DNA of 64,000 nt from an uncultured Actinomycetes bacterium (GTDB lineage: Bacteria > Actinomycetota > Coriobacteriia > Anaerosomatales > CAVRZR01), in contig CAWEJW010000003.1 in assembly GCA_963809535.1 (NCBI GenBank), positions 116,031-180,030 of the forward strand, written 5' to 3'. The notes beneath the pieces are model-generated. The model was given only the letters and a program-made list of their open reading frames with translations, ran no database searches and was not told the DNA's origin. Shown here piece after piece: positions 1,928 to 64,000 of this stretch; positions within the stretch are counted from its first letter, which is position 1; each line of letters opens with the position of its first letter. The position numbers and the translations under genes were made by a program.

Positions 1928-2359
1928 CTACCGACGCGTGTCCCGGAGGAAATCACGAACCGCAGTGCGAGTTGCCTGCTCAATGCCCGCGCGGGTCCGC
2001 TGAGGCATCCGATTCCAGACGTCCGGATTGCGACGAAGCACGCCGAGACGGTACTTCAGGTGCGCCAAACCGAGGGAACCGTGTCCGATTCCGTCTTGTC
2101 GCGAGTGCAGAGCCCGTCCGAGCGCCGCCAGGGCCCCGTCATGATCGCCATGCGACTCGAGTCGCACGGCCTCCGTCATGTAACCGCGCGCGAAGGTGAG
2201 AGCCATGGGGTTGAAGTGCCGCCCCCAATGGCGCCTGCCCGGCCACTTGGCGTCGACCCCGACGTTTGCACGCCCGACCTGCTCGGCGTCTGTCCGGAGC
2301 ATGCCCTCTTCGATCGCCCACTGCACGGTCAGGCCGTAGTGGACCTGCGGTCCCGGCAC
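1928..2359 (-). CDS. Hypothetical protein (143 aa)
   Basis: GTG start at 2359 preceded by GAAGGAG. Coding-like codon usage. No family recognised by eye. Confidence 0.5.
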   Translation of the reverse strand: MPGPQVHYGLTVQWAIEEGMLRTDAEQVGRANVGVDAKWPGRRHWGRHFNPMALTFARGYMTEAVRLESHGDHDGALAALGRALHSRQDGIGHGSLGLAHLKYRLGVLRRNPDVWNRMPQRTRAGIEQATRTAVRDFLRDTRR

Positions 2360-2385
2360 GGGCGCGCTCCTTCAGGTCGCCGCTT

Positions 2386-2397
2386 CACGTCGACGTG
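2386..2397. promoter_or_regulatory. Perfect 12-bp palindrome CACGTCGACGTG in a divergent promoter region
   Basis: Read directly from the sequence. A further TCGACGTG copy lies at 2412-2419. Confidence 0.3.
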
Positions 2398-2466
2398 TCT
2401 ATCAGATTGACTCGACGTGAATGTACCCTGGTCGGCCTTGCGTTCACGCCGGGCATGGGTATGTTA

Positions 2467-2482
2467 GTGAGTGATAACTCAC
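2467..2482. promoter_or_regulatory. Inverted repeat GTGAG-TGATAA-CTCAC on the start of the efflux operon; candidate TetR operator
   Basis: 5-bp arms around an AT-rich centre. It overlaps GTG 2471 and precedes ATG 2483. TATGTT lies at 2460-2465. Confidence 0.3.
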
Positions 2483-3637
2483 ATGCGACGCCTGTGGTAC
2501 ATAGCACTTCTGCTCGTGGCCCTTCTAGTGAGTCTAGGCTGGGTTGCCTCCGTTCGCCTCGCGAGCGAGACCGACGTTCAGAACGGCGAGCTCGTGCTCG
2601 CAGCCACCGTTCGTCCGGACTCGGTGAGCGTTCTGGCTCCCGCACTTGCGACCTCCTCGACGGCGGGGGCGACCGGCGTCACGCTGACTGGTGCGGCTTC
2701 CTCCCCGGTCGTAGCAGGCATGCTCGCCTCTGTGGAGGTGTCCGCGGGAGCCGACGTGCAGGCCGGGCAGGTGATCGGCCGGCTGGATGACACCGCCCTG
2801 CGTCTGCAGCTGCAAGCTGCTCGCGCAGGTGCACGCGGAGCGCATGCGCGGGTCGACATAGTCGACGCGAACCTCGACGCGCTCGACGACAATGCGGCCA
2901 CCCTGGCGGACGCCCGAGTCAAGCTCGACGAAACGCTCGCAAACCTGCGCCCTTCTCGCGCCGAAGTCTCCAGCAACCTCGTCAAGGCGCGCGCCGCTGT
3001 CGCCTCTCTGCCGCCGACGCTGCCTCCCATGCTGCCGCCGGGGATGACCGACCCGCGCGTACTCGTCGCCAAGCTGGAGGCGGCGCTGGCCAAGATCGAT
3101 TCCGGGCTCTTGCGGGCGACCACCGCCCGAGCGAGACTCGACTCGAGCGAGGCAAAGATCGCAGATGCGCGTGCGCAGCTGCGGGATGCGCGCAAGCTGA
3201 CCCTCCTCGCAGCAAACGCTGCGGACGCCGGCGTCGACGTGGCCGAAGCGCGCTTGGCTCTGGCGGTGGTCCGCGCGCCCTACACCGGCACCGTCACCTG
3301 GGTGGCCGAACGCGGCAGCGTTCTGTTCGCGGGCGGACCCGTGGCTCGCCTTGCTCCGGCAGGCCCGCTGCTGCTCGACACCTACCTCGACACCGCCGAA
3401 GCGGCGCTCGTCGATGTGGGCTCGAGAGCGCGCGCGAGCTCGGACAGCTTCCCGGGTCGCGCATATCCCGGGCACGTCTCGGCAATCCTCCCGATCTATG
3501 AGTACCCGCCGACAGCGCTGCCCACTCGGCTCATCCACATGACGCGCGCGTTCCGAGTGACCGTGACGCTCGATGACACGGCCGCTCCACTTCCCGCGGG
3601 CACGCCAGCCGACCTGACCATCTCTGTGAGGAGCTAG
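2471..3637 (+). CDS. HlyD-family membrane fusion / periplasmic adaptor protein (1 of 2)
   Basis: N-terminal TM helix, long Ala/Leu-rich coiled-coil region, and VRAPYTGTVTWV beta-barrel motif typical of HlyD/MFP proteins. Alternative start ATG 2483. Confidence 0.8.
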   Translation: MITHMRRLWYIALLLVALLVSLGWVASVRLASETDVQNGELVLAATVRPDSVSVLAPALATSSTAGATGVTLTGAASSPVVAGMLASVEVSAGADVQAGQVIGRLDDTALRLQLQAARAGARGAHARVDIVDANLDALDDNAATLADARVKLDETLANLRPSRAEVSSNLVKARAAVASLPPTLPPMLPPGMTDPRVLVAKLEAALAKIDSGLLRATTARARLDSSEAKIADARAQLRDARKLTLLAANAADAGVDVAEARLALAVVRAPYTGTVTWVAERGSVLFAGGPVARLAPAGPLLLDTYLDTAEAALVDVGSRARASSDSFPGRAYPGHVSAILPIYEYPPTALPTRLIHMTRAFRVTVTLDDTAAPLPAGTPADLTISVRS

Positions 3638-16903: not shown

Positions 16904-16979
16904 TGGAGCGGGCGACGGGTCTCGAACCCGCGACCTAAAGCTTGGGAAGCTTTCGCTCTACCAACTGAGCTACGCCCGC
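16904..16979 (-). tRNA. tRNA-Gly (anticodon CCC), CCA encoded
   Basis: Folded by hand: acceptor GCGGGCG/CGCCCGC, D arm GCTC-AGTTGGTA-GAGC, anticodon loop TTCCCAA, T arm GCGGG-TTCGAGA-CCCGT, discriminator T plus CCA. 76 nt. Confidence 0.93.
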
Positions 16980-57515: not shown

Positions 57516-57764
57516 TTAAGGCACGGGATCGTGCCCACCGGGATTCCAGGGGTGGCATCGTGCAATCCGTCGAACGGAGAGCCACCCGCCTCGCAGCACG
57601 CCGTAGCGTTCGACTGATGTTACAGCATACGCAGAACACGTCGGCGTGAACCGACAGGTCGGCGGGAAGGCCGGCGAGATGAACTTCTGGTAGCCGCGGA
57701 TCGCGTAGACAACGACCAACCTGGGCGCGCGTGCGAGAGACTGGCCATTTCTCTGGTCGCTCAC
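57516..57764 (-). CDS. yidD: Membrane protein insertion efficiency factor YidD
   Basis: [31 protein letters not shown]...RRIARCHPW. Confidence 0.9.
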
Positions 57765-58090
57765 GACAATCGCGCCCGCCCAAGGACGGAGCGCATGGCT
57801 GCATCGACGTCTGCCGCGCCGGCTTGGGCGAGACCCTTCCGGGCCACGAGAACGATGTCGTGTGCTTTCGGCGGGCCCCCCATGCGGCGAAGAGCCTCCC
57901 GAAGGACGCGCTTCATGCGGTTTCGAGCAACCGCGTTGCCGAGTCGACGTCCGGCAACGAAGGCTGCTCGGCCCTCGCTCGTGTCATAGGCTGAAGGCGC
58001 CACCAGTAGCATGAGGAGTGAGTGCTCCACTTTCTCAGCGCCGCGGAACATCGCGTCGATCTCACGCGTGGAGCGGATCGTCTGCATCAT
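57761..58090 (-). CDS. rnpA: Ribonuclease P protein component
   Basis: Position after rpm[20 protein letters not shown] motif. I prefer ATG 58090 (GGAGG upstream) over GTG 58123, which overlaps rpmH. Confidence 0.88.
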
Positions 58091-58115
58091 TGCCTCCGCA
58101 TGACGCGGGGCAGGG

Positions 58116-58250
58116 TCACGCACTCAGACGTGCGCGTCCCTTGCGTCGACGAGCTGCCAGAACTGCCCGGCCGCCGCGGGTGGCCATACGCGCACGGAAG
58201 CCATGCGTCTTCGCACGCCTCCGGGTATTGGGCTGGTACGTTCTCTTCAC
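58116..58250 (-). CDS. rpmH: 50S ribosomal protein L34
   Basis: Own translation: [44 protein letters not shown] (44 aa). GGAGGAA RBS. Below the ORF-track cutoff. Confidence 0.93.
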
Positions 58251-58441
58251 GGTTCCTCCGATCGGCGCCCGGGGGGCTCCCGGAGCAAAGCCCGACGATT
58301 ATACAGATGTGGTTTTCGGAGTGTCAACGCGTACCGCGGCGGCCGAAGCGACCCCGGCCGGTCGATCGGACGAACGCGGGACGGGGCCTTCGCACTGCTC
58401 ACGGGCGTGCGAGCACCGGCCTCGCTTTCTGACACACAATC

Positions 58442-58846
58442 TGTGGACAATGTGGAAAAAGCAGGTTTGACGTCGCCTCAGCCTGTGGATAACTTAGTTT
58501 CGGCGTTTGTTGGCGGCTTTCGCATATTGCTAGACTCCGAGCTGTTCTTCGAGGGCTGGATGCAAGGCATCTTACCTTGAGAAATGCCGTTTATCGCCCA
58601 TACTGAACCGTCCGTCGGGCGCCATTGCGAAGCAACCGCCAGCAGTTTCCACGACGTCCTCCGACTGCCAGAAGATTCCTTGGAGTAGCTCGGGTGCTTT
58701 CCACAGGCGCCGATACACGAAACAGCGTTTTCCACCGATTCCCGAGGCGCACGGACGACGTGAACGCGCTTGCGCTGCGGCGTTCGCGAAGCGGGTCCCT
58801 CTGGAGCGGTCGATGTATCCACAGATGTGGAAAGCTTTGTGGAAAA
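58442..58846. other. oriC DnaA-box cluster 1 (between rpmH and the GHKL-wHTH gene)
   Basis: Boxes compared with TTATCCACA: 58442-58450 TTGTCCACA(rc), 58451-58459 TTTTCCACA(rc), 58484-58492 TTATCCACA(rc, perfect), 58697-58705 CTTTCCACA, 58728-58736 TTTTCCACC, 58815-58823 GTATCCACA, 58826-58834 CTTTCCACA(rc), 58838-58846 TTTTCCACA(rc). Confidence 0.8.
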
Positions 58847-58986: not shown

Positions 58987-60036
58987 ATGTCTCACTTGGG
59001 GGGGTTGTTGAAGCCATTCTTTTCGGGGACGCGCGCCGCACCCGCGGCACCGCCCACGTCTCGTCCAATCGAGGCTTTCGGCTTCTCAACTGCCGCGCCG
59101 ACAGTGGCGACCCGTCTTCAGCAAGAATCAGTGCAGGCTGCCGCGGCACCTCGAGAGCGCTTCTGCCCGTCGGAGTGTGCGCGCATCGCAGTCTACGACG
59201 GGGCCGGCAGTGCTCCTCGGGTAGAGGAAGTAGCTATCGCGGATACGGGAGAGTACATCGCACTCCTCGCATCCCGCACCTATGAACTCGCGCGCGCGAT
59301 GGGGGGGCGCGTCCCGTTCTCAGTGATCAACGAGGTGGTCGAGAACTACATCCACGCCGATTTCCGCGGTCCCGTTGTAACCATTCTCGACTCCGGCAAC
59401 ACGATCCGCTTCTCCGACCAGGGCCCGGGGATCAAGGAGAAGGACAAGGTCCTGGAGCCGGGCTTCACGACGGCTTCAGCTCCCATGAAGCGCTACATCC
59501 GCGGCGTTGGCTCCGGGCTTCCTCTCGTGCGCGAGTGCCTTTCGTTCAGCGAGGGGACCGTTGAGGTCGAAGACAATCTCGGCTGCGGCGCGGTGGTCAC
59601 GGTGACCGTCGCCGGCGTCGAGGGACGAGCGCGTGCGCCGGGAGCGCCGGAGTCGGCCAGCGCTGGAGTGGCCTCGGCGATTGCGTCTGCGAGCGCAGGC
59701 TCGGCGCCGCCGGCCACCAGCGCACAGCCCGACGGTTCAGCAGCAGGCTCGACCTCAGCGGATTCGTTCGTTCTCGAGCCAACCACATACCCCGCCCACG
59801 GAGGCACTTCCAGGCTCACGAACCGTCAGAAGCGCGTGCTCGCGCTGGTTATGGACGCAGGGCAAGCGGGTCCATCGCTGGTGGCCCGTGAGCTCGCTAT
59901 CGGTCTGTCGACCGCCTATCGTGACCTGGCCCATCTCGAGGTTCTCGGCTTCATCGTCGCTGATGAGTCGGGTAAGCGATCTCTCACCCCCGAGGGGTCG
60001 GCGTTCTTGCACAGCCTGCTTCACCCCGGAAGGTAG
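58987..60036 (+). CDS. GHKL (HATPase_c-like) ATPase fused to a C-terminal winged-helix DNA-binding domain, immediately upstream of dnaA
   Basis: Bergerat motifs: N box EVVENYIHAD, G1 DQGPGI, G2 GVGSGLPLV, G3 GCGAVVTV. Ala/Ser linker, then wHTH LTNRQKRVLALVMDAGQAGPSLVARELAIGLSTAYRDLAHLEVLGFI. Start uncertain (58942 or 58987). Confidence 0.7.
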   Translation: MSHLGGLLKPFFSGTRAAPAAPPTSRPIEAFGFSTAAPTVATRLQQESVQAAAAPRERFCPSECARIAVYDGAGSAPRVEEVAIADTGEYIALLASRTYELARAMGGRVPFSVINEVVENYIHADFRGPVVTILDSGNTIRFSDQGPGIKEKDKVLEPGFTTASAPMKRYIRGVGSGLPLVRECLSFSEGTVEVEDNLGCGAVVTVTVAGVEGRARAPGAPESASAGVASAIASASAGSAPPATSAQPDGSAAGSTSADSFVLEPTTYPAHGGTSRLTNRQKRVLALVMDAGQAGPSLVARELAIGLSTAYRDLAHLEVLGFIVADESGKRSLTPEGSAFLHSLLHPGR

Positions 60037-60078
60037 ATCGATTCGAACTGTGCGGCCCGCGCCGCTAAGGGGATTGTC

Positions 60079-61476
60079 ATGGCCGATGTGAACGTTATCT
60101 GGGACGGGGTCTTGGACGTCGTCCGCTCTGAGTTGACCACGCCCGTCTTCAAGACATGGTTCGAGCACGCGCGCCCGCTCTCGCTCGAGCAGGACGGTGT
60201 GTTCGTCATCGGCGTCCAGAACGAGTTCGCGCGTGAATGGTTCGAAACGAGGTACTCGAGCCTGATCCGCTCCGCGGTTTCGCAGGTGACCGGTGAGGGG
60301 TTCGATATTCGCGTGATCATCGACCGTGAGCGCGCCGGATCTGAAGGATCGGCCACGGCTTCCGACGTCGAGCAGGAAGAACAGCAGGCCCCTCTTGATG
60401 TTGAGACCGCGGAGGAGAGGCGCGTCCGGGACGCGGCCTCAGGCGAGTTCGCAACCAAGTACACGTTCGACACCTTCGTCATCGGACAGTCGAACCAATT
60501 TGCGTGCACGGCGGCACTGGCGGTCGCCGAGGCGCCCGGCCTGTCATACAACCCGCTGTTCATCTACGGCGGCGCCGGGCTGGGCAAGACACACCTGCTT
60601 CAGGCGATAGGCCACTACGTTCGCAAGAACTATTCGCACAAGAAGGTTGTCTACGTGTCCACCGAGCAGTTCACGAACGACTTCATCAACTCAATTCGGG
60701 ACAGGAACTCCAATCGGATCGACGGATTTCGCCAGCGTTATCGTTCTTCCGACGTGCTGCTCGTCGACGACGTGCAGTTCCTGAAGGGCAAGGAGGGGAT
60801 CCAGGAGGAGTTCTTCCATACCTTCAACGCGCTGCAGCAGGCCGGCAAGGCAGTGGTCCTGTCCTCTGATAGACCTCCGAAGGACATCGCCACACTCGAG
60901 GACCGTCTCCGCAGTCGGTTCTCGATGGGGCTCATCACCGACATTCAGCCACCGGACCTCGAGACGCGCATCGCCATCCTGCGTCGCAAGGTCGACACGG
61001 AGCGTCTGGAAGTCCCCGATGATGTCCTCGAGTACACCGCGGGCCTGGTGTCCTCGAATGTTCGAGAGCTCGAGGGTGCCCTTACCCGCATCGCCGCGTA
61101 CGGCTCTCTCTCCCGACGCACCGTCGATCTCGAGCTGGCGAAGACCGTTCTTCAGGACGCCTTCCCCGAGCGCTCTACGCGGCCGATCGCCGTCTCAGCC
61201 ATACAGCGCGAGGTGTGCAAGTACTATTCGATCAGCCATTCGGAGCTCGTCGGCAGCAAGAGGTCGCAGAACATCGTCTATCCTCGGCAGATCGCCATGT
61301 ACCTGGCCAGAGAGCTCACGGACCTCTCCCTGCCGAAGATTGGAGACGAATTCGGCGGCAGAGACCACACGACGGTCATGCATGCCACGGCGAAGATCCA
61401 GAAGCTCATGAACGCTCAACGGGAGGTGTACAACCAGATCCAGTCACTCACCAACACGATCCGCCAACACGCCTAA
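60079..61476 (+). CDS. dnaA: Chromosomal replication initiator protein DnaA
   Basis: [15 protein letters not shown], Walker [22 protein letters not shown]-terminal domain [11 protein letters not shown]. Confidence 0.97.
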
Positions 61477-61561
61477 TGTCGTTGCTTGTTGATAAGAGTG
61501 TTGGCAACGCGTGGTCAGTGTGTTGGCCGATTCGCGAGTATTGTGAGTTCTCGTCCTATGG

Positions 61562-61653
61562 TGGGGACAGTGGGGATAACACTGAAGTTTTGTCCACAGG
61601 ACGAACAAGGTGGCCACACCGCTAGCAAGCAGGGATTATGATGCTCTTCCACA
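61562..61653. other. oriC DnaA-box cluster 2 (dnaA-dnaN intergenic) with an adjacent AT-richer stretch
   Basis: 61562-61570 CTGTCCCCA(rc), 61571-61579 TTATCCCCA(rc), 61590-61598 TTGTCCACA, 61645-61653 TCTTCCACA. Followed by ATATGCAC...TTACACTTAGACAAGG up to the dnaN RBS. Confidence 0.7.
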
Positions 61654-61708
61654 TATGCACAGCGCCTACTACTGAGATGGTTACACTTAGACAAGGAAGG
61701 AACACTAG

Positions 61709-62806
61709 ATGAAGTTCAGTGTCGCTCGCACCGAGCTTGCCGAGGCCCTCGCGATCACCAGCAGGGGACTCTCCGCTCGCTCTACCCTCCCGATTCTTTC
61801 AGGCGTCCTCGTCTCTTGCGAGAAGGACTCTGTCACGTTGCAGAGCACCGACCTCGAGATCTCCGTGCAAACGAAGGTGAGCGCCAGGGTCGAGGCAGAG
61901 GGACGAAGCGTACTGCCGGGAAGGTTGTTCTCCGAGATCGTGCGCAACATGCCCGAAGCAGCGATCACTGTCGCCCTTGAGAGAGACTTGGCGGTCATCT
62001 CCAGTGCCACCGCATCGTTCACGCTCAAGACCCTCCCCGCTGACGACTTCCCGAAGTTCCCTACTGTGTCGGTCGAGAAGCGCGTGCCTCTACCGTCATC
62101 GGTCATGTCGTCAGTGGTGAAGCAGGTTTCAAGAGCCGTCAGCCGCGATGAGACGAGGGCCATCCTCACCGGTGTGCTGTTGTCAGTGGACGGGCCGACG
62201 GTACGCATGGTCGCCACGGATTCCTACCGGCTTGCAGTGCGCGAAGCGGAGCTTGAAGGGGCGGCAGAGCACGTCGAGGTCGTCGTGCCCGGGAAGGCTT
62301 TGGAGGAAGTGACCAAGCTTCTCGCTGGAGTCGAGATCGTGGAAATGGGAGTCTCGGAGAATCAGATCGTCTTCGAGTTCGGGGACACGATATTCATCAC
62401 GCGGAGGATCGAGGGTACCTTCCCGAATTACAGAGCGCTCATACCGAAGGAGCGGGAGACGGTCGTACGCGTTCCAAGCGAGGAACTCGTGGCGGCTGTG
62501 AAGAGGGTCTCGATCATGGCGCAGCACAACACGCCATTGAGGCTGTCAGTCCATAGCGAAGACCAGACGCTGAGTCTGAGCGCGACGACGCAGGACGTCG
62601 GCGATGCATCTGAAGACTTGATGGCCAAGGTGGAGGGGCCGGACGTCGAGATCGCGTTCAACCACGCGTTTCTCATGGACGGCTTGTCATCGATAACCGC
62701 AGAAGACACGCTCTTGGAGATCGTCAGTCCCTTGAAGCCCGGCGTGTTCAAGCCGGCGGACGGAGAGGACTACCTCTACTTGTTGATGCCCGTGCGATTG
62801 AGCTGA
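61709..62806 (+). CDS. dnaN: DNA polymerase III beta sliding clamp
   Basis: MKFSVARTELAEAL..., three-domain length of 365 aa, C-terminal YLLMPVRL. Confidence 0.97.
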   Translation: MKFSVARTELAEALAITSRGLSARSTLPILSGVLVSCEKDSVTLQSTDLEISVQTKVSARVEAEGRSVLPGRLFSEIVRNMPEAAITVALERDLAVISSATASFTLKTLPADDFPKFPTVSVEKRVPLPSSVMSSVVKQVSRAVSRDETRAILTGVLLSVDGPTVRMVATDSYRLAVREAELEGAAEHVEVVVPGKALEEVTKLLAGVEIVEMGVSENQIVFEFGDTIFITRRIEGTFPNYRALIPKERETVVRVPSEELVAAVKRVSIMAQHNTPLRLSVHSEDQTLSLSATTQDVGDASEDLMAKVEGPDVEIAFNHAFLMDGLSSITAEDTLLEIVSPLKPGVFKPADGEDYLYLLMPVRLS

Positions 62807-62818
62807 CGAGAGCCGAGC

Positions 62819-63895
62819 GTGCGCGTCTGGATACGCCGCCTGGAGCTCAAGGACTTCAGGAACTACGCGTCATTCGAACTCGAGCCCTCTGAGGGGCTGA
62901 CCATCCTCGTCGGGCCGAATGCCATCGGCAAGACGAACGTGGTCGAGGCGATCGAACTCGTCACCGAAACGACGTCGTTCAGGAATCCTGTCTGGGCGGA
63001 TCTCGTGAGGCAGGGAGCGGAGACGACGACAGTCCTCATGCAGGCACAAGCCGAGTCGGGGAGCAGAACGGACATAGCCCTGACCGTGGAGAACGGCCGG
63101 CGCGCATACCGCGTGAACGGCGCGCCGAAGCGGGCGGTGATCGAGGCAGCAGGACTTGTCCCAGCCGTCGTGTTCACGCCGGACGACCTGCGCGTCATCA
63201 AGGAGGGGGCGGATCGCCGGAGGGCGGCTCTCGACTCAGTGGGCACGCAGATCTCGCGCCCCTACGGGCAGCTCAAGGGCGAATACGACCGGATCCTGCG
63301 GCAGAGGAACGCGTTGCTTCGAGAGCCCGAGACGACGAACGACGAACTCGAACCGTGGACGGAACAGCTCGCGAGGACCGGCGCGGCCCTGACCGCGCGC
63401 CGTGAGAGTCTGACGGGCAAGATGGCTAGCCGCGTGAGCGACGAGTACGCAGCGCTCTCTCGTCAAGAGACCCTGAGCGTCGCGTACATGAGCGGGTGGA
63501 ACGCGGAAGGCCTCGGTGATGAAGGGGCAATGCTCGAACGGTTGCGCGCGCGAGCACATGAAGAACGAGCACGACGGACGACCCTGGTAGGACCGCATCG
63601 CGATGACGTGCGCTTTGAGATAGACGGCAAGGACGCGCGAGCGTTCGCTTCGCAAGGGCAGCAGCGCAGCGCAGCGCTCGCGTGGAAACTGGCAGAACTC
63701 GACGTGATCGAGGAGCTGTCGGGAAAGACCCCGGTGCTCCTACTCGACGACGTGATGTCGGAGCTCGATGAGGCCAGGCGACACGCACTCGCGACACGCG
63801 TGGGAAGGCGCACGCAAACGATCATGACCACGACGAACCTCGGCTACTTCGACGAGACGCTGATCGAAGAGGCGAAAGTCATCGAACTCGCGTGA
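62819..63895 (+). CDS. recF: DNA replication and repair protein RecF
   Basis: LELKDFRNY, Walker A GPNAIGKTNVVEAI, signature FASQGQQRSAALA, Walker B VLLLDDV. Confidence 0.95.
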   Translation: MRVWIRRLELKDFRNYASFELEPSEGLTILVGPNAIGKTNVVEAIELVTETTSFRNPVWADLVRQGAETTTVLMQAQAESGSRTDIALTVENGRRAYRVNGAPKRAVIEAAGLVPAVVFTPDDLRVIKEGADRRRAALDSVGTQISRPYGQLKGEYDRILRQRNALLREPETTNDELEPWTEQLARTGAALTARRESLTGKMASRVSDEYAALSRQETLSVAYMSGWNAEGLGDEGAMLERLRARAHEERARRTTLVGPHRDDVRFEIDGKDARAFASQGQQRSAALAWKLAELDVIEELSGKTPVLLLDDVMSELDEARRHALATRVGRRTQTIMTTTNLGYFDETLIEEAKVIELA

Positions 63896-63902
63896 GGACC
63901 GG

Positions 63903-64000
63903 ATGAGGAAGCGGGCTACACAGACAACGCTTGGCGATGCCCTCTGGGGATACCTCAGACGGGTCGACAAGAAGGGGGATCTTGCACGGGCGCAAGTGGC
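63903..64000 (+). CDS. DUF721/DciA-like protein, N-terminal fragment (runs off the window end)
   Basis: MRKRATQTTLGDALWGYLRRVDKKGDLARAQV. The position after recF matches the actinobacterial DUF721 gene. Only 32 codons are visible. Confidence 0.5.
   Translation, partial: MRKRATQTTLGDALWGYLRRVDKKGDLARAQV

Follow-up and report, generated by a model that had tools for sequence, protein, structure and literature searches.

A GHKL ATP-binding and winged-helix protein encoded directly upstream of dnaA in deep-branching Actinomycetota

Results

The locus

The DNA analysed here, called the window throughout, is a stretch of 64,000 nucleotides from an uncultured Actinomycetes bacterium (assembly GCA_963809535.1, contig CAWEJW010000003.1, positions 116,031 to 180,030), and our subject is a gene in it, named X below, that lies between rpmH and dnaA. 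X encodes a protein of 349 amino acids (aa) in which a GHKL ATP-binding domain is joined to a C-terminal winged helix-turn-helix (wHTH), and its position is highly conserved, dnaA being the next gene in all 76 distinct relatives that offered at least 300 bp of downstream DNA. An earlier reading of the window made from the letters alone (the sequence-only reading) had placed an open reading frame (ORF) at 58987-60036, 42 bp before dnaA and downstream of a group of DnaA boxes; both the coordinates and the gap proved correct. The gene order in the window is parB-parA-rsmG-jag-yidC-yidD-rnpA-rpmH, then X-dnaA-dnaN-recF, and together with the dciA-gyrB pair that follows recF in relatives it represents what we take to be the actinobacterial pattern. 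The genes and signals at the core of the locus are as follows.

58987..60036, plus strand: gene X (GHKL ATP-binding domain and winged helix), 349 aa, ATG at 58987 and TAG at 60034-60036
59008, plus strand: alternative start TTG of X, in frame, giving 'MKPFF'
60037..60078, plus strand: X-dnaA spacer of 42 bp, with the dnaA ribosome-binding site AAGGGGA at 60067-60073
60079..61476, plus strand: dnaA, from the ORF and from Pfam DnaA_N, Bac_DnaA and Bac_DnaA_C matches in related loci
61709..62806, plus strand: dnaN, from the ORF and tblastn
62819-63895, plus strand: recF, directly after dnaN
58116..58250, minus strand: rpmH (ribosomal protein L34), the divergent neighbour, from the ORF, tblastn (61-95% identity) and Pfam Ribosomal_L34 in related loci

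The good codon bias that had been noted for X was borne out, as the GC content at its third codon positions (GC3) is 0.73, near the 0.74-0.84 of neighbouring genes. More than 120 homologues were found at E<1e-72, far beyond chance, and a protein identical to X (349 aa, P0001) is present in a public collection. The true start of the gene is uncertain by seven codons, because the TTG at 59008 and its product 'MKPFF' fit the usual N terminus of the family, 'MKxF[FY]', better than the upstream ATG. The window has a GC content of 65% and contains many overlapping chance ORFs around X. X and dnaA share one reading frame, with a single TAG and 14 codons between them, which looks coincidental. Read-through or fusion of the two genes was considered and rejected, as spacer lengths in relatives are not divisible by three and the family lengths include no fused protein.

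Gene order in related genomes

Relatives of X were collected by scanning metagenomes with family-specific peptide patterns. At least 583 relatives were obtained from 600 candidate stretches, and gene order was studied in the 80 best-scoring loci. As determined by tblastn with the window proteins, the relatives in this set share 38-66% identity with X and their DnaA proteins 44-90% with that of the window, while the GC content of the loci ranges from 0.27 to 0.72. The X-dnaA spacer has a median length of about 33 bp in these relatives, compared with exactly 42 bp in the window. The homologues in this set are not dispersed over other chromosomal loci (such dispersal had been named by the sequence-only reading as damaging to its case), and conservation of the ORF reaches far beyond sister genomes. 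Six homologues examined individually (46-66% identity) all lie between rnpA/rpmH and dnaA-dnaN-recF-dciA-gyrB.

Loci with altered surroundings are particularly informative about the side of the divergent gene pair to which X belongs. One locus (L092) carries jag-mnmE-mnmG upstream and keeps the X-dnaA linkage, and in two loci from metagenome-assembled genomes (MAGs) labelled Armatimonadota (L090 and L091) a remA-like gene between dnaN and gyrB takes the place of recF-dciA, with X-dnaA again retained:

L090/L091:11819-12082, plus strand: small RemA-like gene between dnaN and gyrB

In loci of the Thermoleophilia type (L094 and L065/L069/L083) the rpmH-rnpA-yidC-jag group is not found upstream and unrelated genes (thiamine transporter, TPK, MoeA) occupy that side; DnaA boxes still precede X, and X-dnaA-dnaN-recF-dciA-gyrB is intact. 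Since the linkage to dnaA survives these changes, X is to be assigned to the dnaA half of the divergent pair. No terminator-like site was seen in the window between the start of X and the end of dnaA, so that co-transcription of the two genes, as had been proposed, is plausible; nor was a promoter-like site detected within X or in the X-dnaA spacer of the window.

A few further features of these loci were observed. In L029 an ORF of 424 aa (1948-3219, plus strand) lies between rpmH and the DnaA-box array, where the rpmH-X spacer measures 2.2 kb, and may be an insertion. A DciA (DUF721) gene follows recF in L001, L004, L006, L007 and L009; the window ends at 64000, just past recF, so that its own dciA is beyond view. 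On the rpmH side, a yidD-like ORF (57516-57764, minus strand) and rnpA (57761-58123, minus strand) abut or overlap by a few bases, and in relatives the automatic annotation of this high-GC region sometimes fuses yidD and rnpA or cuts them short, as in the 225-aa 'YidD' of L001.

The X protein

The protein can be divided into four parts, whose coding regions are listed here.

59008..59022, plus strand: conserved N-terminal peptide (L/M)KPFF, with the family motif MKxF[FY]/MESFLDRLL/MQDFFLRLI, followed by a disordered tether
59164..59616, plus strand: GHKL (Bergerat) ATP-binding domain, aa 60-210, from HATPase_c and a structure model with confidence mostly >85
59623..59802, plus strand: disordered linker rich in Ala, Ser and Pro, with model confidence <50 for aa 213-272 and a length that differs widely between relatives
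59809..60021, plus strand: C-terminal wHTH, aa 275-345, with the recognition helix STAYRDLA and the wing GKR, model confidence >90

The structure model was built with AlphaFold 2 (AF2) on an alignment of 22 sequences, and its confidence is given as the predicted local distance difference test (pLDDT). X is a member of the GHKL (Bergerat-fold) superfamily: Pfam HATPase_c matches aa 112-208 with E=1.5e-9, above the gathering cut-off, and was found in all 22 relatives searched, the motif residues are in place, and in a Foldseek search of the PDB the CA domains of histidine kinases (CpxA, HK853, WalK and CckA) match the model at E ~1e-5. A profile search of the PDB gave a best E of 2.6e-4, with weak matches to KinB, BCK/PDK kinases, HK853, CheA and MutL, the last appearing as a weak match at the level of the N-box only. 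Neither X nor any of the 22 relatives has a Pfam match to HisKA/DHp. X thus lacks the H-box domain that defines sensor histidine kinases of the two-component type. NCBIfam holds no model for the family, its kinase models matching the CA part alone and far under their cut-offs.

Conservation was assessed over 63 diverse relatives, in which all of the following residues are conserved at 95% or more. They comprise E116, E119, N120 and H123 of the N-box, D144, G146 and G148 of G1, G173, G175, G177 and L178 of G2, and G201 and T205 of G3; a family-specific set made up of R66, Y70, D71, P77, K152, P158-G159, T162-A163 and D196-N197; and T309, R312, K330 and R331 of the wHTH. H123 of the N-box is the sole conserved His in the family. 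The architecture given by the sequence-only reading, that is, a Bergerat fold with N, G1, G2 and G3 boxes and no DHp, an Ala/Ser linker and a winged helix, thus agrees with Pfam, AF2 and Foldseek. Its 'unrecognised N-terminal region' was right in part. Residues 1-55 are indeed variable and predicted to be disordered (pLDDT <50 for aa 1-53) except for a short peptide, but aa 62-110, which form a conserved, family-specific beta-hairpin (RIAVYD...PRVEEV) and a helix, belong to the GHKL domain in the model. Most family members start with such a peptide, short and hydrophobic or amphipathic in character (MKxFF, MESFLDRLL, MQDFFLRLI or MENYFQRFV), followed by a variable disordered tether.

The C-terminal elements of the model are helices at 279-291, 296-303 and 307-320 and strands at 323-325 and 331-333. 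Winged-helix matches of X itself in Pfam are sub-threshold and cover aa 278-330 (IclR with 19.4 bits against a cut-off of 22, TrmB and FtsK gamma), and among the 22 relatives IclR was matched by 19, TrmB by 17, HVO_A0261_N by 17, DeoR by six and MarR_2 by two. Judged by the predicted fold and these matches, the C terminus belongs to the winged-helix transcription-factor clan (MarR/IclR/TrmB/DeoR/ArsR-like), with no single subfamily assignable.

DnaA boxes, promoters and the origin

DnaA boxes were scored in the window at up to one mismatch. Eight of the 12 boxes in the 64 kb fall in kilobases 58 and 61, and four in the rest; those upstream of X lie at 58442, 58451, 58484, 58815 and 58838, and those in the dnaA-dnaN spacer at 61487, 61571 and 61590. 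The rpmH-X interval and the dnaA-dnaN spacer contain these elements:

58298..58327, minus strand: rpmH promoter, a perfect sigma-70 consensus TTGACA-18-TATAAT, both hexamer regions conserved in an alignment of 14 spacers
58442..58492, unstranded: DnaA-box cluster 1, TGTGGACAA, TGTGGAAAA and TGTGGATAA in one orientation, with 9 and 33 bp spacing; spacing and sequence conserved family-wide
58507..58536, plus strand: putative X-dnaA operon promoter, TTGTTG, 18 nt and the extended -10 TGcTAGACT (TGn-TANNNT)
58574..58617, plus strand: conserved non-box block ACCTTGAGAAA...ACCGTCCGTCG, seen in the alignment and overlapping a weak promoter-like match TTGAGA-16-CATACT
58697..58736, unstranded: two more DnaA-box-like sites (CTTTCCACA and TTTTCCACC), with conserved columns 'TTTCCACA' in the alignment
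58815..58846, unstranded: DnaA-box cluster 3 from the box scan, GTATCCACA facing TGTGGAAAG and TGTGGAAAA, a convergent pair 23 bp apart
61477..61708, unstranded: dnaA-dnaN spacer of 232 bp, candidate unwinding region, with boxes at 61487, 61571, 61590 and 61646

In the alignment of 14 spacers the elements keep a fixed order, namely the rpmH promoter, the tandem box triplet, TGn-TANNNT, the block ACCTTGAGAAA...ACCGTCCGTCG, two boxes, the convergent pair with a further box, and finally the ribosome-binding site and start of X. Most of these 14 relatives keep a TGCTANNNT motif immediately behind box cluster 1, the extended -10 of the window being TTGCTAGACT (58527-58536). Most relatives also have the +/- box pair, with its two boxes 22-23 bp apart, and the alignment shows it to be conserved as well. 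That box number, orientation and spacing are kept across distant genomes implies that DnaA assembles in a structured form ahead of the operon. The block at 58574-58617, whose -10 region keeps no clean TANNNT, may serve as a further promoter, as an operator or as a leader element.

Motifs shared by the upstream regions were sought by counting k-mers, before and after masking of DnaA boxes, in 57 distinct spacers between rpmH and X with a median length of about 790 bp. The near-universal k-mers are DnaA boxes only, with TGTGGAAAA in 50 of the 57 spacers and TGTGGATAA in 47, and 'GCCGATTCTAGCA' is enriched in 16 of them. No universal motif that could be an X-specific operator emerged from these spacers, box masking leaving elements of the rpmH promoter and of the putative X promoter. 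Rfam gave no match in or near the long leader upstream of X; a tRNA gene at 16907-16979 (minus strand) is the only match at the gathering threshold in the whole window. The perfect consensus of the rpmH promoter, conserved in related genomes, is unusual for an organism of 65% GC.

We place the origin in the X-dnaA region of the window, where the cumulative GC skew has its minimum (58-62 kb). Within this region the unwinding site most likely lies in the dnaA-dnaN spacer, judging from its composition and motifs. With a GC content of about 50%, against 65% for the window, this spacer is the lowest in GC of the region, and it holds a conserved TCCACA-N-CACAG element followed, just before the dnaN ribosome-binding site, by three-nucleotide TAC/TAT/TAG repeats. 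In the window the sequence at 61646-61684 reads TCTTCCACA-T-ATGCACAG-CGCC and then TAC TAC TGA GAT GGT TAC (61667-61684); relatives have repeats of the type TAT TAC TAC TAG at the matching position. The arrangement resembles the unwinding module made of a DnaA box and DnaA-trios, for which the consensus is 3'-GAT-5' with a critical central A (PMC10721633). The statement that X is embedded in oriC holds in so far as X and dnaA are flanked by two DnaA-box clusters, but it is overstated, because the candidate unwinding element, with its tandem boxes, TAC/TAT repeats and lowest GC, sits downstream of dnaA. We read the upstream box array as the DnaA-controlled promoter region of the operon, and it is possibly also the second half of a bipartite origin.

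Distribution of the family

When 1.84 billion representative sequences were searched with a profile, 388 clusters (50% identity) matched at E<=1e-30 and 546 at E<=1e-10. The members stem almost entirely from metagenomes or MAGs, and there is no isolate and no characterised protein among the homologues found. Joint Genome Institute (JGI) names for members are 'anti-sigma regulatory factor (Ser/Thr protein kinase)' and/or 'ArsR family regulator'. Carrier names at NCBI, obtained by searching with two divergent family members, include MAGs of Actinomycetota and Ca. Oleimmundimicrobium ('ATP-binding protein'), Ca. Aquicultor of the class Ca. Aquicultoria ('hypothetical protein' or 'ATP-binding protein') and Thermoleophilia MAGs ('ATP-binding protein'), together with one MAG labelled Firmicutes ('histidine kinase') and one labelled Armatimonadota ('ATP-binding protein'). 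A scan of genome collections with the X protein gave a single close relative, a MAG labelled 'uncultured Eubacteriales'. The window was also scanned for the WhiB motif as an actinobacterial marker; there was no match, a result that is uninformative. The claim that the system is undescribed stands for the databases and literature that we searched: no characterised relative and no publication was found, and no account of an ATP-binding or GHKL gene in the rpmH-dnaA interval came up in the full-text search, an absence that is in itself no proof. The family is built from known domains and apparently unnamed, and its coupling to dnaA, unusually strict, is apparently undescribed as well.

Discussion

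Synteny and domain content together suggest a role of X in initiation control. We propose that in deep-branching Actinomycetota gene X opens a conserved X-dnaA(-dnaN-recF) transcription unit, and that its product is an ATP switch or kinase which is tethered to DNA and works with DnaA. The two proteins would be made together from one or more DnaA-controlled promoters; X would bind DNA of the origin region via its winged helix and would modulate replication initiation by binding ATP, by hydrolysing it or by phosphotransfer. Its target may be DnaA, the helicase-loading step or another initiation factor, which it would sequester or phosphorylate much as proteins of the SpoIIAB/RsbW and PDK/BCK types do with their partners, and the N-terminal peptide may be the docking motif for that partner. 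Alternatively, X may tune transcription of the dnaA operon. We lean, by a modest degree, towards the broad claim that X is functionally coupled to DnaA or to the control of initiation. That it acts directly on DnaA or the initiation machinery is a tentative suggestion that we would not bet on. The same reserve applies to the most specific form of the proposal, a speculative new class of initiation regulator, shared by several early-branching classes of Actinomycetota, in which a DNA-anchored GHKL switch or kinase, made in stoichiometric amounts from a DnaA-autoregulated operon and equipped with an amphipathic docking peptide, would act on DnaA or on helicase loading.

Several points weigh against this proposal. 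There is no characterised homologue of X, and function is assigned through guilt by association. The motif (S/T)-A-Y-R-(D/E)-L in its recognition helix resembles the generic 'TIRRDL' of DeoR-type proteins, so that its conservation need not mean a conserved DNA target, and the k-mers of the 57 spacers revealed no operator for the winged helix upstream of X. CA domains of the histidine-kinase type show little ATPase activity of their own and as a rule depend on a phospho-acceptor partner, and none has been identified for X. The loci used for synteny are the best-scoring 80 of at least 583 relatives, the most divergent members lying outside this context sample. Finally, dnaA could have a promoter of its own inside the 3' end of X.

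Four other explanations have to be weighed. X could be an ordinary one-component transcription factor, an ATP-binding sensor with a wHTH, whose regulon has nothing to do with replication and for which the dnaA operon is a growth-coupled expression slot. A wHTH of the MarR/IclR/TrmB/DeoR clan is typical of transcription factors, the JGI name 'ArsR family regulator' points the same way, and the k-mer counts of the origin region brought up no X-specific operator; yet an invariant position in 76 of 76 relatives, with DnaA diverged to about 45% identity and flanks rearranged, would be unusual for a hitch-hiking regulator, and housekeeping dnaA operons seldom tolerate inserted genes. We consider this explanation unlikely. 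The same holds, to a stronger degree, for a factor that organises or segregates the origin region, a DNA-binding ATPase that compacts or positions ori, possibly with ParAB, and does not regulate DnaA. The genes parA-parB do lie 4-5 kb from X in the same conserved block, 11 of 22 relatives weakly match the FtsK gamma winged helix (best E 1.9e-4), and there are GHKL ATPases that act on the topology or compaction of DNA, such as MORC, MutL and Topo VI-B. However, the GHKL domain of X is of the small kinase (CA) type, without the transducer and N-terminal strap of the DNA-manipulating GHKL ATPases, and X stays with dnaA where the par/rpmH side has been replaced.

The JGI/COG annotation suggests an anti-sigma serine kinase like RsbW or SpoIIAB that belongs to a partner-switching circuit, but it is very unlikely that X is such a protein. 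Many members do carry the corresponding JGI name, and the layout of strand(s), helix and N-box helix, the Glu at position N-4 and a His shortly after the N-box Asn recall SpoIIAB. Yet HATPase_c_2 (PF13581) is matched neither by X at E<=1 nor by the 22 relatives at E<=0.01, a fused wHTH is foreign to the RsbW/SpoIIAB family, and no STAS, anti-anti-sigma or sigma-factor gene occurs in the Pfam-annotated neighbourhoods (5-8 kb on each side in L001-L004, L006-L009, L090-L092 and L094). The idea that the ORF is spurious, or a mobile or defence gene inserted recently, draws on the many overlapping chance ORFs of this GC-rich region and on the combinations of GHKL and HTH domains that occur in defence systems. 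We regard it as refuted by the conservation data and give it next to no probability: hundreds of homologues are found at E<1e-70, with conservation that follows the domains, GC3 is typical of coding sequence, PADLOC and PHROGs returned generic wHTH or kinase-domain matches only, a plasmid search gave no match, and the chromosomal position is fixed.

Regulators of DnaA are, to our knowledge, largely unknown outside E. coli, Bacillus and Caulobacter, and we know of no homologues of Hda, SeqA, YabA or SirA in Actinobacteria. With its fixed place before dnaA, strictly conserved ATP pocket and DNA-binding domain, the X family is the most obvious candidate for an initiation factor in the lineages that carry it. 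If the proposed role is true, the known means of initiation control would be extended by a nucleotide switch of the GHKL type. For several candidate classes without experimental origin data, the conserved arrangement of boxes can moreover serve as a ready map of the origin region, and the hypotheses on X can be tested directly with purified protein although most carriers are uncultured.

Among proteins of established structure, the CA domains of histidine kinases (CpxA, HK853, WalK and KinB) are the best sequence and fold matches of X and share its Bergerat fold with N, G1, G2 and G3 boxes, a similarity that is remote (E of 2.6e-4 or weaker in the PDB search). X differs from histidine kinases in having no DHp/HisKA, phospho-accepting His, sensor or transmembrane region, and it is fused to a wHTH whereas they pair with a response regulator. 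SpoIIAB/RsbW and PDK/BCK, small GHKL domains that without DHp serve as ATP/ADP-dependent partner-binding switches or Ser kinases, are our model for X, which has in addition to SpoIIAB/RsbW a DNA-binding domain and a tethered N-terminal peptide. In the DNA-manipulating GHKL ATPases GyrB, MutL, Hsp90, MORC and Topo VI-B, which dimerise through their N termini in an ATP-driven manner, the ATP-binding domain is followed by a transducer domain (ribosomal S5 domain 2-like) with a catalytic Lys, whereas the GHKL domain of X is followed directly by the disordered linker. The only solved structure that Foldseek aligned over both halves of X is DIP2311 of Corynebacterium diphtheriae (PDB 3LMM; COG2865-type), with 308-325 columns and E ~6e-5, but with a TM-score of 0.33-0.34 and 14-16% identity. 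DIP2311 is a putative regulator composed of Schlafen/AlbA_2, GHKL-like and wHTH parts; genes of this type are not known to be dnaA-linked, and they too have no assigned function. X itself has no Pfam match to AlbA_2 or HATPase_c_4, which sets it apart from the COG2865/DIP2311 group.

The locus as a whole is comparable to the bipartite origins of Bacillus subtilis (incAB/incC) and Helicobacter pylori (oriC1/oriC2), in which, as in the window, dnaA is flanked by DnaA-box clusters; the boxes and trio-like repeats of the candidate unwinding element in the dnaA-dnaN spacer add to the likeness. The window differs from them in the extra protein-coding gene between the upstream cluster and dnaA. Known regulators of DnaA or oriC include SirA, YabA, Soj(ParA) and Spo0A in Bacillus, Hda, DiaA, SeqA and IciA in E. 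coli, HobA and HP1021 in Helicobacter, MtrA and AdpA in Actinobacteria and CtrA in Caulobacter. Pfam, NCBIfam and PDB searches gave no homology of X to these families, none of which is known to be a GHKL protein or to be encoded as an upstream operon partner of dnaA, and direct control of DnaA by a GHKL protein, if true, would be categorically new. The role proposed for X is nevertheless akin to theirs, that of an accessory factor acting on the origin or on DnaA, which like Soj and Hda would depend on a nucleotide, and Hda shares with X a short N-terminal peptide on a tether, in its case a clamp-binding motif.

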